In this document: positions 12,851 to 17,200 of the stretch, piece after piece
Layout: the number at the start of each line of letters is the position of its first letter
How positions within the stretch are numbered: the first letter of the stretch is position 1
Source: Acidobacteriota bacterium
Lineage (GTDB): Bacteria > Acidobacteriota > Aminicenantia > UBA2199
NCBI GenBank assembly: GCA_030837085.1
Contig: JAUPLE010000120.1
Location: forward strand, 1-59,909
Reading direction: 5' to 3'
DNA length: 59,909 nucleotides
Translations under genes and position numbers: made by a program
Notes under the pieces: model-generated
The model's database searches: none
What the model saw: only the letters and a program-made list of their open reading frames with translations
Told to the model about the DNA's origin: nothing

Positions 12851-12962
12851 GGAGACCAGAAACCTTTTCGAGAAAAGGTTTCTGGACTTCCTAAAGCTTT
12901 TATTAATAAAAGTTTTACGGGGGTCCGTACCGGCGGGGCGTTTTTTCAAAAGAGCCCCCTGG
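12851..12962. repeat. Composite intergenic palindromic element: perfect 13-bp hairpin, 24-nt near-palindrome, and a PE-1 G-rich hairpin copy
   Basis: ccagaaacctttt (12856-12868) / cgag / aaaaggtttctgg (12873-12885) form a perfect stem. aaagcttttattaataaaagtttt is a near-palindrome. 12908-12962 is the PE-1 copy, 54/55 identical to 15271-15325. The element lies between divergently transcribed genes, so it is not a terminator for either. Confidence 0.8.
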
Positions 12963-13028
12963 TGCAGCACTTGAAAGAAAGTACGTCATATGTCATAATT
13001 GTAGGAAGAAACCCATAGGAAAGCAAAT

Positions 13029-13712
13029 ATGAAAGATGATTACGTGAGATTGATAGAAGAAAAGTTCCAGGCCTCGGCCGACCCGGTCAAAGCGTTACCC
13101 ATGAAAAAGTATATGAAAAACCTATTTGAATTTTTAGGAATTCAGAAACCTCAGCGAATACTTTTAAAAAAAGAGTTTCTAAAAAAAGAGCGGCTGCCAG
13201 GGGTTGAGCGATTGGAGGAGATTATCAAACAACTTTGGAACTTGCCTGAAAGAGAGTACCAATATTTTGGTTTCGAGTTAGTGGAGCATTACCGGAAGCA
13301 GTTAAAGGAGCAGGATATCGATTTACTTGAGTATATGATTACCAATAAGTCCTGGTGGGATACCGTGGATTTCATTGCCTCCTGCCTGGTGGGGCCGCAT
13401 TTTAAGCGGTTTCCTCATCTGGTGGGGCCGTATACCGCGAAATGGCTGGCATCAGGGAATATGTGGCTTCAGCGGACGGCGCTGCTTTTTCAATTAAAAT
13501 ACAAAGCAGGGACCGATGTGGAATTGATGTTTCAAATCATCAGGCAATTGGCTGATTCTAAGGAATTCTTTATTCGCAAAGCCATAGGCTGGGCGCTGCG
13601 GGAATATTCCAAAACGAATCCCGCTGCGGTGATGAAATTCGTAGAAAACCAACCCCTATCTAATTTAAGCAAGAGGGAAGCGTTGAAAGTGATCGTCCGG
13701 AAAAGCAATTGA
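13029..13712 (+). CDS. DNA alkylation repair protein (AlkD/AlkC-like HEAT-repeat family)
   Basis: 227 aa. The segments KYMKNLFEFLGIQKPQR, SWWDTVD, WLQRTALLFQLKYK and FFIRKAIGWALREYSKTNP are characteristic of the DNA_alkylation family. Confidence 0.8.
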   Translation: MKDDYVRLIEEKFQASADPVKALPMKKYMKNLFEFLGIQKPQRILLKKEFLKKERLPGVERLEEIIKQLWNLPEREYQYFGFELVEHYRKQLKEQDIDLLEYMITNKSWWDTVDFIASCLVGPHFKRFPHLVGPYTAKWLASGNMWLQRTALLFQLKYKAGTDVELMFQIIRQLADSKEFFIRKAIGWALREYSKTNPAAVMKFVENQPLSNLSKREALKVIVRKSN

Positions 13713-14235
13713 TTACGGAAGTTTAGCCGCTAAGAACACGAAGATACGCGAATAAAAAATCGCCCATGAATTAATCGAATTAAAAATCAGGGATTAAAAA
13801 AACGGGGGAGCAGAAGAGCGGAAGAGAGGTCTTCTTTGAAATGACTAGACAAATCCTTTCGGAGCTGTGATAAACATAAAGTTACCACTCCGTGAAATCT
13901 GTGGAATCTGTGTACTTGTTTTTTCCCAACTTCCTCTTTTAAGTAAAAAAACCGAACCGCCCCAAGCGCTTTTGAAGTCAAGATAGCAGTTCTGCGTATC
14001 CCGATTTTAGCAACAGGATAACTCTGGAAATGGTTCATGAAATTCGGGATTTACATTTTTATATTATATGATATTTTGTATTCCAAAATGCAATAAGTCA
14101 AAATTTCTTTATTAATTTTTTTCTTTTTATCTATGGGCTTAGAATCTTGTACAAAAGCGGTAGCCTACCCCGGATAAACAATAAAAGATAAGTTTACAAA
14201 ATCAACAGACTATTTAAAGCACCTGGAGAAAAGCG
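13713..14235. repeat. AT-rich, repeat-dense 523-bp spacer upstream of the NRPS operon
   Basis: Contains gagcagaagagcggaagag (13808-13826; 19-mer identical to 31112-31130 inside gene B). Also contains ccgtgaaatctgtggaatctgtg (short tandem motif), aagaacacgaagatacgcgaa, and long A/T runs. The only ORF (13787-14038, minus) is low-complexity. Confidence 0.55.
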
Positions 14236-17200
14236 ATGAATAATTTTGTCGGGATAATGGTTGAAGATAGCCCACAACTCCTGGTAGGGCTGCTGGGAAT
14301 TTTAAAATCCGGGAAAGCACTTGTCCCCATTAGCGCTACATACCCTTCAGAAAGAATTCATTTCATCATCAAGGATTGTAATATTCGCCTCTTGTTAACT
14401 GATAAAGCGAATTATGGCAAAAGTTATGAAATAGCAGCGGCAAGTCCGGTGTTGACCCACCTGCTTTGCCTGGATGACGGAACTAGCGACACTTTTGACA
14501 AAAAAACGGGGGAGGCCCACAGCTCTTTCCAAAAAGAAGAAACCTGCTATGTGATCTACACCTCGGGGTCCACGGGCAAACCCAAGGGCGTCCCTATCAC
14601 TTATCGAAATTTAAATCCCCTATTTTATTACTCCAGGGAATACCTGCACCTGGGCGGGCATACGCGTGTAATGAAGAATTTATCTTATACATTTGATTTT
14701 GGGATTTTCGAGATTCTCACGACACTTTTGTTTGGCGGTCAACTTTATATCTTAAATAAGTCATCCATTGGCGATTTTTCCTTTTATGCCTATTTTATCA
14801 ACAGGCAGCAAATTAATACTCTTCATACGACGCCGGTGTTTTTAAATAACCTGGCCTGTTCAGGCCAAAAAATGCCTTTTATAAAGCGTATCCATCTGGG
14901 AGGGGAGCAGTTAACCGGCAAGGTGGTACAGGATACACTGGCTGTGATATCCCCCGGGTGTATTCTCTACAATGGTTATGGGCCCACCGAAGCCTCGATC
15001 AACTGCACTTTTTTCTCTTTAACCTGGGAAGAAATGAAAGCGAACGTAAGGGAAAACATTCCCATTGGGAAGCCGTGCGACCGGCATGAAATTTATATCC
15101 TGGATAATTTTCTCAATCCGCAGCCGGTGGGAGCGGCCGGTGAATTGTGCATAGCAGGGCCGGGGTTGTCGAAGGGGTATTTAAACCGCCCGGAATTAAC
15201 TGCTGAAAAATTTGGACCACAGATTACGCTGATTACGCAGATTAATGTGATAAAAAAAACAAAAATAATCAAAAGTTTTACGGGGGTCCGTACCGGCGGG
15301 GCGGTTTTTCAAAAGAGCCCCCTGGAAATTTATCGCACCGGTGACCTGGCGCGGTGGTCAACCGACGGCAATATCGATTTCCTGGGCCGCATCGACCACC
15401 AAGTCAAAATCAGGGGGTTCCGCATCGAATTGGGAGAAATCGAAAGTTGCCTGTCCTTGCATCCAATGGTTAAAGAAACCGTGATCATGGCTCGGGAGTA
15501 TGAGAACGGCGATAATTACCTCTGTGCTTATATTGTGACTCAACCGCCGGAACATCTGACCGTCTCCCAATTGAGGGAATTTCTTTCAAAGCACTTACCC
15601 GATTACATGATTCCTGCATATTTTATTCAAGTGGACAGAATCCCCATGACAACCAATGGGAAAATAGACAGGAAAGCGTTACCGAAACCGGATGAAACTT
15701 TCATCGATACCGGCGTCGAATATGTTGCGCCGGTTACAGGAACGGAGAAAAAGCTGACACTCTTCTGGCAGCAGTTATTAATGATTGAGAAAATAGGAAT
15801 CGTTGATGATTTTTTCCATTTGGGAGGAGATTCCATCCTGGTGAACCGGTGCATTGCGCGCATCCGGGAAGAAATGCAAGTAGAAATTCCGCTGCGGAAA
15901 TTTTTTGAGCAACCTTTTATAAAAGCCTTAGCGGAAGAAATTGAGAAACAGGAACGCCGGGTATTTTCCATCCCGAAGGCAGCCCGGGATGGAGACATTC
16001 CGCTTTCTTTTCCCCAGGAACGGTTATGGTTTTTGCAAAACTTGAATTCAGAGAGTGTCGCCTATTTTGTACCCCGTGTCATCCGGGTCATAGGGAAACT
16101 GGAAGTAAAAATACTTGAACGGACCTTTACTGAAATAATTCGCCGTCATGAAATATTGCGAACAGTATTTGTGACAAAAGACAGTATACCCGTGCAGCAA
16201 GTGCAGGCTCCCTACTATTTTAATATCCCGGTTATCGATATAAGCCGTGACGAGGTGGAACATTGGGTAGAAGAAGAAGGACATAAGTCCTTCGATTTTG
16301 ACAAAGGCCCCCTGCTGCGAGTTTCCCTGCTAAAACTCGAAGAAAACGAACAACTGATAGTGCTGACTGAGCATCATTTGGTCCATGACGGCTGGACCCA
16401 GGGAGTGCTGTTGAAAGAGTTTATCCACATCTTCACCGCTTATTCCGAAGGAAGAGATCATGATTTGCCGGAATTGCCGATTCAATATGCGGATTTTTGT
16501 GTATGGCAGCGTGAATTTTTGCAAGGAGAGCGACTCAATCGCCATCTTGATTATTGGAAAGAAAAACTGTCCGATTTGATCCCGTTATTGGAACTCCCCG
16601 GGGATCGTCCCCGGCCAACAGTGATGAGTGGAAACGGCGCGTTGAAAGAATTTCGCCTGCCTTGCACCCTTACCAGGCAATTGGAAGAATTCAGCCGGGA
16701 GAATGGTATAACTTTATTTATGACTATGCTGGCAGTGTTCAATACTCTTTTATACCGTTATTCCCGGGAAGAGGATTTGTGTGTAGGCATGGGTATTGCC
16801 AACCGGGGTTATAAAGAAATGGAAGGCATGTTGGGGATGGTGATAAACACGCTTCCGCTTCGCACGCATACGGTGGGTGATCTTACTTTCACACAGTATT
16901 TAAACCGTGTAAAAGAGACCTGCCTGGAAGCATATCAACACCAGGATACGCCGTTCGGCAAAATAGTGGAAGCCCTGGCCCCGAAGCGAAGTTTAAGTTA
17001 TAACCCTCTTTTCCAGGTGATGTTTAATTTTATGGATACGCCTACGGAAGATTTATGGCTGCCGGGCCTGGAATTGCACCTGGAACCGACTCATAACCGT
17101 TCAGCTAAATTCGACATCAACATTGTTGTAGTACCACCGCCGGAACAGGAAATAGATCCGGCGTCGGAAATAAATGGCGGCGAAATCCTGGTGGAATGGG

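Follow-up and report, generated by a model that had tools for sequence, protein, structure and literature searches.

A 55-nt sequence, AAAAGTTTTACGGGGGTCCGTACCGGCGGGGCGTTTTTTCAAAAGAGCCCCCTGG, occurs twice in the DNA analysed here, a stretch of 59,909 nt from an Acidobacteriota bacterium (Aminicenantia, UBA2199; contig JAUPLE010000120.1 of assembly GCA_030837085.1) that is referred to below as the window. One copy (12908-12962) lies in a 253-nt spacer separating two divergent genes, a sulfatase gene on the minus strand and a DNA_alkylation gene on the plus strand. The other copy (15271-15325) lies 2363 nt downstream, inside a 3869-aa open reading frame (ORF; 14236-25845) of a non-ribosomal peptide synthetase (NRPS), where it is read as KSFTGVRTGGAVFQKSPL and is flanked by GYLNRPELTAEKF and YRTGDLARW, between motifs A6 and A7 of the first adenylation (A) domain. 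Both copies are on the plus strand and are identical at 54 of 55 positions, the single mismatch being at position 34 (T12941 versus G15304). As to the two copies, their contexts and their near-identity, a preliminary description, made by inspection of the sequence, proved accurate. The similarity of the two copies extends ~4 nt further on the 5′ side (TAATn) and stops sharply at the 3′ CTGG. In 100 dinucleotide-preserving shuffles no chance match to the 55-mer with three or fewer mismatches was obtained. We are confident that the 55-mer belongs to a family of non-autonomous hairpin repeats, short (~55-70 nt) and present in many copies, which comprises the element designated E1 and sisters such as E2 and is found in Aminicenantes and several other lineages of anaerobes.

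Copies in the window were found by alignment, by short-word BLAST and with a covariance model of E1 (R1). E1 consists of AAAAGTTTT and a G-run, followed by the hairpin GGGGCGGTTTTTCAAAAGAGCCCC and often by a CCGCCGGAGGCAAA tail, and it contains no stop codon in any sense frame. Nine copies are confident, namely five in A6-A7 loops, two in A2-A3 loops and the intergenic pair of E2 and E1 (Table 1); one of the nine (42179-42247) was absent from the seed of the model and was still found. The hairpin core of the in-gene copies is translated, depending on the frame, as GAVFQKSP, GRFFKKAP or GDFSKKPP. Over their aligned parts the E1 copies within A domains are 83-98% alike; the host A domains share 43-72% nucleotide identity over the A3-A6 core and A7-A10, with the core of A domains 2 and 9 (76%) as an exception. 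In A domain 8, two copies bracket the A3-A6 specificity core. A generic scan of the window for long hairpins yielded nothing beyond E1 and E2. No protein identical to the exact 3869-aa NRPS product is on record.

Table 1. Repeat copies and neighbouring features in the window (PKS, polyketide synthase)
Feature	Position	Strand	Remarks
Sulfatase/TPR gene, left neighbour	10349..12775	-	Pfam Sulfatase + TPR
E2, sister element, left half of doublet	12841..12904	-	44 bits, E 2.9e-9
E1, intergenic copy, right half of head-to-head doublet	12908..12962 (R1 12905-12976)	+	59 bits, E 5.5e-13
AlkD-like DNA alkylation repair gene, right neighbour	13029..13712	+	PF08713 DNA_alkylation
Hybrid NRPS-PKS cluster	14236..55596	+	Five ORFs, nine A domains, end KS-AT-KR-ACP-TE; seven in-frame copies
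5′ module of loop cassette, A domain 1	15223..15270	+	ITLITQINVIKKTKII; GATTACGCn repeats; travels with E1 in other NRPSs
E1, A6-A7 loop, A domain 1	15271..15325 (R1 15268-15340)	+	KSFTGVRTGGAVFQKSPL; 61.5 bits
E1, A6-A7 loop, A domain 2	18598..18670	+	NKSFCGGDRGAVFSKKAPL; DLWAEQDNQDD module ahead; 50 bits, 12-bp stem
E1, A6-A7 loop, A domain 3	21805..21877	+	NNFTWGCTGGTVFQKSPL; 49/51 identical to copy in A domain 1
E1, A6-A7 loop, A domain 6	34994..35063	+	NKSFLADEGGRFFKKAPL; core in different frame; 59 bits
E1 + tail, A2-A3 loop, A domain 7	37631..37697	+	KKFLGGPRGDFSKKPPGCRRP; third frame; 71.8 bits, best in the window
E1, A2-A3 loop, A domain 8	42179..42247	+	FFRGSRGAILQKSSP; 50.8 bits, E 6.8e-11; not in seed
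E1 + tail, A6-A7 loop, A domain 8	42923..42992	+	EKFLGVRTGGLFFKKAPGRRRL; 45.9 bits

The window was compared with independent Logan assemblies from three sequencing runs (contigs L001-L004; here and below, L-numbers denote loci and P-numbers proteins). These assemblies agree with the window at 100% over 12911-15233 and at 99.9-100% over 9432-12883, and their contig ends (12883, 12911 and 15233) are the break points expected of a k = 31 graph from the 55-mer repeat and a perfect palindrome at 12858-12885. The breaks of short-read contigs exactly at the repeat, and the lack of an independent contig over 12884-12910, could also be taken to mean that one of the two copies is an artefact arising from a chimeric join through the repeat. 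We consider this highly improbable. On the right-hand side of the intergenic copy the junction, together with T12941, is reproduced at 100% in two other runs. If the two copies had their left flanks exchanged, the frame of the A domain would be lost, and so the present order, with an intact A6-loop-A7 region and a confident predicted fold, is the consistent one. In addition, the arrangement of E2 and E1 as a doublet recurs in unrelated contigs, and the syntenic locus of a relative has an element at the same place. As a separate observation, many A-domain proteins in the databases are 'partial', consistent with assemblies breaking at loop repeats.

E2, read on the minus strand, consists of AAAAGCTTT, a G-rich arm, a stem (AAACC/GGTTT), a TTTTC..GAAAA loop, the return stem and the tail CTGGTCTCCGAAGGCAA, an architecture like that of E1; the palindrome at 12858-12885 lies inside it. 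The heads of E1 and E2 meet at a palindromic ATTAAT. The resulting 121-nt doublet is 86% identical to the tdk-udk spacer of an unrelated metagenome contig (L109), and L108 is arranged alike. Matches to E2 are also found in L051, L072 and L073, and head-to-head (-,+) pairs occur in 10 other loci (L072, L073, L049, L088, L028, L020, L014, L081, L108 and L109). In L073, the 2.5 kb between the inverted copies encodes a membrane protein and not a transposase. Promoter-like sites, identified by consensus matches alone, are present on either side of the window doublet at 12810-12782 (-) and 12971-12999 (+). Since it lies between promoter-like sites of divergent genes, the doublet is probably not transcribed.

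Distribution and folding of the repeat family

Public genome assemblies, one genome per species, were scanned with the degenerate core GGGRCGNTTTTTCAAAARAGCCCC. The core is present in at least 103 loci from at least 16 assemblies, with three Aminicenantes metagenome-assembled genomes (MAGs) contributing at least 25, at least 16 and at least 7 loci. The other hosts listed are Deferrimicrobium, Nitrospinota, Omnitrophota, other Acidobacteria, unclassified bacteria and gut Clostridia/Eubacteriales. Flanks that are not constrained by the search pattern are still conserved, giving the consensus TAAnAAAAGTTTTnnGGGGGTCCAG-core-CTGGCCGCCGGAGGCAAA, and R1 produced 146 matches in the 690 kb of these loci. 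A collection of viral contigs contained no match to the core pattern. The 'GTACCGGC' subfamily was found at only 3 loci in a metagenome scan, none of them from the source organism of the window.

Most copies are extragenic. When a copy was counted as internal to a long ORF if at least 80 stop-free codons were present on both sides of it, 89 of 110 anchored copies were not internal. The remaining 21 are read in all three sense frames (6, 4 and 7 copies) and in antisense (4 copies), and a few of them, in G+C-rich genomes, may be spurious. Confinement of the sequence to A domains, which the preliminary description had named as evidence against its own interpretation, is therefore not what is found. 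When the genes next to copies were clustered, NRPS genes alone formed a group of any size (8 of the 103 loci listed).

The preliminary description had called the 55-mer a hairpin. Folding of the 55-mer by itself gives this claim little weight: the minimum free energy of the RNA is -22.6 kcal/mol for the intergenic copy (z -2.0) and -21.2 kcal/mol for the copy in A domain 1 (z -1.2). At the level of the family the claim is well supported, by compensatory changes in the stem. Among 94 distinct copies, pairs 1-4 of the outer stem are paired in 81-91%, with G-C, A-T, T-A and C-G pairs all used (for example CCAG/CTGG, GCAG/CTGC, CAAG/CTTG, TGAG/CTCA and GTGT/ACAC). When the two sides are shifted by 1-2 positions, pairing falls to 15-70%. 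The inner stem is fixed by the search pattern and is uninformative with regard to covariation. The covariation of the outer stem indicates that the hairpin is selected. No Rfam family matched the window and 10 loci at the gathering score, and none matched 12780-13030 at E≤1.

Copies in protein-coding genes and adenylation-domain loops

Across unrelated enzymes, the same repeat DNA is translated in each of the three sense frames as well as in the antisense direction. An antisense insert in a GH2 beta-galactosidase (L079) splits the TIM-barrel match between WDWVDQG and YGGDFG, and in HypF (L025) the match to the Sua5 domain is split around the insert. In a lyase of the HpcH/HpaI family (HpcH_HpaI, CitE-like; L062) the domain match spans the insert. 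An alanine racemase (L022) has ~36 additional residues, including SKQKFYGGAGGGFSKEPPARRRQ, relative to PDB 4luy. Copies are also present in an S-adenosylmethionine (SAM) methyltransferase (L007) and in a TIR-CHAT-NB-ARC protein (L071). As E1 is free of stop codons in every sense frame, proteins tolerate insertions of this kind and incorporate the encoded peptide. A related observation is a 1258-aa ORF resembling dihydropyrimidine dehydrogenase in an Aminicenantes MAG (L101, 946-4719), which contains at least five different translated repeat modules (TKVFRGVKGGGFSKKPPLPPEA, FLKKGSWTSKNF, NLFEKRFLDLQKL, VPLVAEGKK and FSPSYLL).

We also compared a profile of the frame KSFSGGPGGRFFKKAPLAAGGK with 1.84 billion cluster representatives. 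This gave 184 matches at E≤0.001, mostly short spurious ORFs over intergenic copies. Among the matches are 38 long proteins. In ~25 of these, which are A domains, AEKF and Y(K/R)TGD flank the insert; in one, the insert precedes the A3 motif. A word-indexed protein search with a 46-aa concatenate of two frames returned only 18 short spurious ORFs, a number that is no measure of abundance. Many deposited 'hypothetical proteins' of 35-100 aa (P0121-P0138, most of the short profile matches) are translated intergenic copies.

The preponderance of A domains among the long proteins that match one frame, together with the sense orientation of every gene copy in the window, would fit a conserved coding insert of NRPS A domains, of which the intergenic copy is a decayed fragment. 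We regard this as extremely unlikely. Copies in public genomes are mostly extragenic, and those within genes use three frames and antisense in proteins as different as beta-galactosidase, HypF, alanine racemase, the CitE-like lyase and the methyltransferase. No similarity to NRPS was found around the intergenic copy, which adjoins a sister element in inverted orientation; a relative (L116, below) has no element in the orthologous spacer; and the insert is predicted to be disordered. The proposal of the preliminary description, that copying took place at the level of DNA and not through conservation of protein, is supported by the extragenic majority, by frame use, by stem covariation and by differences at the orthologous site.

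The A6-A7 loop of A domains varies in its content. In the closest homologues of A domain 1, the same place is occupied by an E2-type element (FLEVQKPFFKKVSGPRRER), by other repeats, by the canonical FVPNPF...G.RLYKTGD or by almost nothing (P0006, AEKFGTRLYRTGD). Empty and filled states can be aligned directly: at the DNA level, a 63-nt block separates A domain 3 of the window (AEKFGTR[63 nt]IYRTGD) from this last, empty site (AEKFGTR|LYRTGD, L111). P0269 and P0258, which share just 35% and 40% identity with A domain 1, have its whole loop cassette (FGPQITLITQINxIxKTKInKSF...), with the core in another frame and with the 5′ module reading FGPQITLITQINKIQKTKINKSF... and FGPQITLMALMTQIKNAKINKSF..., respectively. 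Since these two proteins share the cassette, loop cassettes appear either to move or to be converted between unrelated A domains. An AlphaFold2 model of A domain 1 (mean predicted local distance difference test score, pLDDT, 87; predicted template modelling score, pTM, 0.81) assigns pLDDT values <50 to insert residues 333-335 and 337-359, and the A2-A3 loop is low as well. The A6-A7 insert is thus predicted to be a disordered loop.

The A domains of the window are mosaics. A domains 2 and 9 are 75-76% identical in the A3-A6 core while their flanks are closest to other domains, and they are 79-90% identical from the boundary of the A2-A3 loop through the next ~100 codons. The identity of A domains 5 and 9 rises to 94-97% directly after the A6-A7 loop. 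These jumps in nucleotide identity, in alignment columns 210-300 and 490-520, are abrupt and indicate recent conversion tracts that start at the loops.

Other repeats were observed in the same loops. A second family (SEIRNPKLETNPNDQN ... DFEFVSNFE, with inverted repeats of the TTTCGAATTTCGAA type) occupies the A2-A3 loop in each of A domains 2, 4 and 6 (17730-17885, 24230-24400 and 34237-34310) and matches 10-11 unrelated public loci, for example L087 (105 nt at 87%) and L063 (66 nt at 91%). A third family (CTCTTACCCTCTCACC..., translated as LTLLPSHL or SYLLTFSPSYLL) is found in both orientations in A domains 3 and 9, again within the A2-A3 loop (21060-21094 and 48539-48640); it has matches at 6613-6722 of L071, just downstream of the TIR-CHAT gene, whose ORF ends at 6577. 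Short periodic inserts, CATTCATCATTCATCATTCA (HHSSFIIHHS) and SYKSYKTY, are present in A domains 4 and 5 within the A6-A7 loop (25095-25140 and 31885-31935), with exact 34-nt or 95% identical 37-nt matches within NRPS genes of L037 and L107. P0001 and P0009, homologues of A domain 1, have an additional small insert between A7 and A8, LPDG[PPAGGAVQGV]IEFLGR and NASPTGGGSGGVIEFLGR, which suggests that A domains tolerate translated repeats at a third place, A7-A8.

Origin and movement of the copies

The spacer between the sulfatase and AlkD-like genes was compared with that of three relatives. For the AlkD-like protein, identity is 93% with the counterpart in an Aminicenantes MAG, GCA_026393835.1 (L112), and 85-86% with those in L114 and L116, and the gene order GWxTD, TPR, sulfatase (-), AlkD (+) is common to all three. 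The spacer measures 27 nt and has no element in L116. In L112 it measures 76 nt and carries, at the E1 position, one member of another subfamily (stem GGACC/GGTCC; R1 33.5 bits). The window spacer, 143 nt by the same comparison, holds E2 and E1, and that of L114 (225 nt) holds a different composite. These four states show that, over the time in which the species diverged, elements have been inserted and replaced, and E2 is an additional insertion in the window relative to L112. The NRPS-PKS cluster (14236-55596) is absent 3′ of the AlkD-like gene in L112, L114 and L116, where toxin-antitoxin or other genes are present instead; its absence in these syntenic relatives places it in a variable region.

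The preliminary description had also spoken of recent copying. The 54/55 identity reflects a recent event at the DNA level: either a copy was newly inserted, or copies of the same 'GTACCGGC' subfamily that were already in place underwent gene conversion. Conversion without any new insertion, with both sites old and the near-identity due to recent ectopic recombination between dispersed copies, has a substantial chance of being correct, somewhat short of an even one. The L112 element, which adjoins TGCAGCACTTGAAAG at the same position, is identical to the window E1 at 46 of 57 aligned bases, against 94% and 88% in the ~300-nt flanks of the spacer core, and an element at this position in L112 means that the site may be older than the present E1 sequence. 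The loop cassette common to distant A domains, with its core in another frame, and the identity tracts that begin at loops (94-97% for A domains 5 and 9; 79-90% for 2 and 9) point the same way. On the other hand, the sharp end of identity at the element boundaries requires that conversion was limited to ~59 nt, re-insertion at a preferred site would yield the same pattern, and the extra E2 relative to L112 indicates that insertion does happen at this site. Because L112 is already occupied at the E1 position, conversion or re-insertion cannot be distinguished there from first insertion. The sites may therefore be old and the sequence recently homogenised, given the loop cassette in distant A domains and the other subfamily at the L112 site.

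Most copies are located between genes, either alone or paired head to head in inverted doublets, and we propose that within genes they survive only where a multiple of three bases enters a disordered surface loop. In the window the family occupies two variable loops (A2-A3 and A6-A7) at seven A-domain sites and the spacer between the divergent promoters. By analogy with known systems, mobility would depend on recognition of the DNA hairpin in trans, on single-stranded DNA, by an IS200/IS605-like, RAYT-like or other enzyme. NRPS loops would be favoured as permissive sites and perhaps also for the AEKF codons GAAAAGTTT, which resemble the 5′ end of the element (AAAAGTTTT). In many A domains the loop copy directly follows these codons, as in GAAAAGTTTATCAAAAGTTTTTCAGG of L037 and L107. 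AAGTTTT, which is similar to the 5′ end of the element, is found at the AEKF codons and at the empty or otherwise occupied orthologous spacers of L116 and L114, and may be a target or microhomology site. In long-form copies the ends TTTTGC...GCAAAA are complementary, and AAAAG or AAGTT often, but not consistently, follows the tail.

Several observations weigh against a family of mobile repeats that inserts independently. Clustering of 1167 ORFs from the 103 loci listed revealed no recurrent mobilising gene near copies, and no transposase or other mobilising gene is among the ORFs around them. No clear target-site duplication or terminal inverted repeat can be defined. The seven in-gene copies of the window are all sense and all in two loops; for this reason, part of the in-gene spread is attributed to duplication or recombination of A domains and not to independent insertion. 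The cassette of A domain 1 in A domains of 35-40% identity fits cassette movement, or equally an old NRPS feature kept uniform by conversion. Finally, 12884-12910 are the sole bases without independent assembly support.

It could also be argued that the hairpin is kept in place for a host function, as a terminator or attenuator, an mRNA stabiliser, a site for a nucleoid protein or topoisomerase, or a translational pause site within the NRPS mRNA. Covariation of the stem across phyla speaks for such a role, as does a T-run after the Clostridia copies that resembles an intrinsic terminator, and repetitive extragenic palindromes (REPs) have been credited with such roles (PMC3733652). However, the window doublet lies between divergent promoter-like sites and is probably not transcribed. 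The window copies do not have the form of an intrinsic terminator, since they lie between divergent promoters or within genes and are followed by TGCAGC or coding sequence and not by T-runs. The states at one orthologous site also differ, which speaks against a site-specific function. We consider a host function unlikely as the explanation, and it would in any case be compatible with mobility.

A further idea concerns the consequences of the repeats. E-family copies might serve as natural recombination sites, portable, near-identical homology of 55-70 nt bracketing the A3-A6 core and allowing exchange of cores or cassettes between modules, clusters and phyla. Hints in this direction are the copies in both loops of A domain 8, the core of A domains 2 and 9 with a history different from that of its flanks, the identity tracts starting at loops, the cassette in A domains of 35-40% identity and the dominance of NRPSs among the long-protein matches of one translated frame. 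We regard the idea as speculative and rather improbable at present.

Relation to known repeats and significance

A search of the literature for the DNA core, the translated peptides and Aminicenantes repeats did not produce a description of the element, and the enrichment of E1 in NRPS loops appears to be unreported. E1 is a new family within a known class of selfish palindromic repeats able to become protein-coding. Rickettsia palindromic elements (RPEs) are palindromic repeats that lie between genes and in frame in unrelated functional genes, where the peptide is tolerated (PMC10969869; PMC3733652). E1 likewise is found both between genes and in frame in unrelated proteins, in a loop predicted to be disordered. 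RPEs, however, are ~100-150 bp long, occur only in Rickettsia and in two cases (RPE-4 and RPE-6) terminate in CGTC, whereas E1 is 55-70 nt long, is found in several phyla and in several frames, and is concentrated in A-domain loops of NRPSs; size and host range set it apart.

REPs and REPINs are short, G+C-rich imperfect palindromes of high copy number, mostly extragenic, often in inverted doublets and in some cases intragenic, and are mobilised by RAYT tyrosine transposases (PMC3116915, PMC3733652, PMC2817692). E1 is similar in being a short, G+C-rich imperfect palindrome with a high copy number (at least 25 loci in one MAG), a mainly extragenic location with occasional intragenic copies, and inverted doublets. 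Its unit, at 55-70 nt, exceeds the 20-40 nt typical of REPs, and its core is found across phyla, whereas REP families are usually species-specific. The GTAG/CGTC tag that defines RAYT-associated REPs is at neither end of the E1 consensus, and CGTC is seen only in a minority variant of the tail (L056 and L064). No RAYT or TIRYT gene was seen adjoining copies among the 1167 ORFs, the NRPS being the sole recurrent neighbour. [quoted passage not shown] E1 is also small, foldable and multi-copy, and shows presence/absence polymorphism (four spacer states in four genomes), but it has no terminal inverted repeats matching a known insertion sequence (IS) and no demonstrable target-site duplication. 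No IS with ends matching E1 turned up in the loci examined, in which no dedicated search was made.

The A2-A3 region of A domains is a permissive site for large insertions, for example of methyltransferase domains. The window shares insertion at A2-A3 with such interrupted A domains and differs in that its inserts are translated repeats of 20-35 residues and not functional domains. Its mosaic identity fits recombination of the Acore, parts of which are mainly exchanged in natural NRPS recombination (PMC8097286); in the passages of that study considered here, repeat elements at the boundaries of exchange are not mentioned.

Selfish palindromic repeats that join proteins have been described chiefly in Rickettsia, along with a small number of other bacteria, and are now found in Aminicenantes and other anaerobes, apparently across phyla. 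The E family accounts for odd low-complexity peptides in metagenomic proteins and A domains, such as KSFSGGPGGRFFKKAPLAAGGK and QKFFGGPGGDFSKKPPGRRRQ, for breaks of short-read contigs inside A domains and for spurious 'hypothetical proteins' of 35-100 aa. For work on natural products, the copies mark two A-domain loops as tolerant of insertion. If the recombination idea were true, the repeats would provide a concrete DNA mechanism for exchange of the A core and would help to explain how Acore swaps are seeded.

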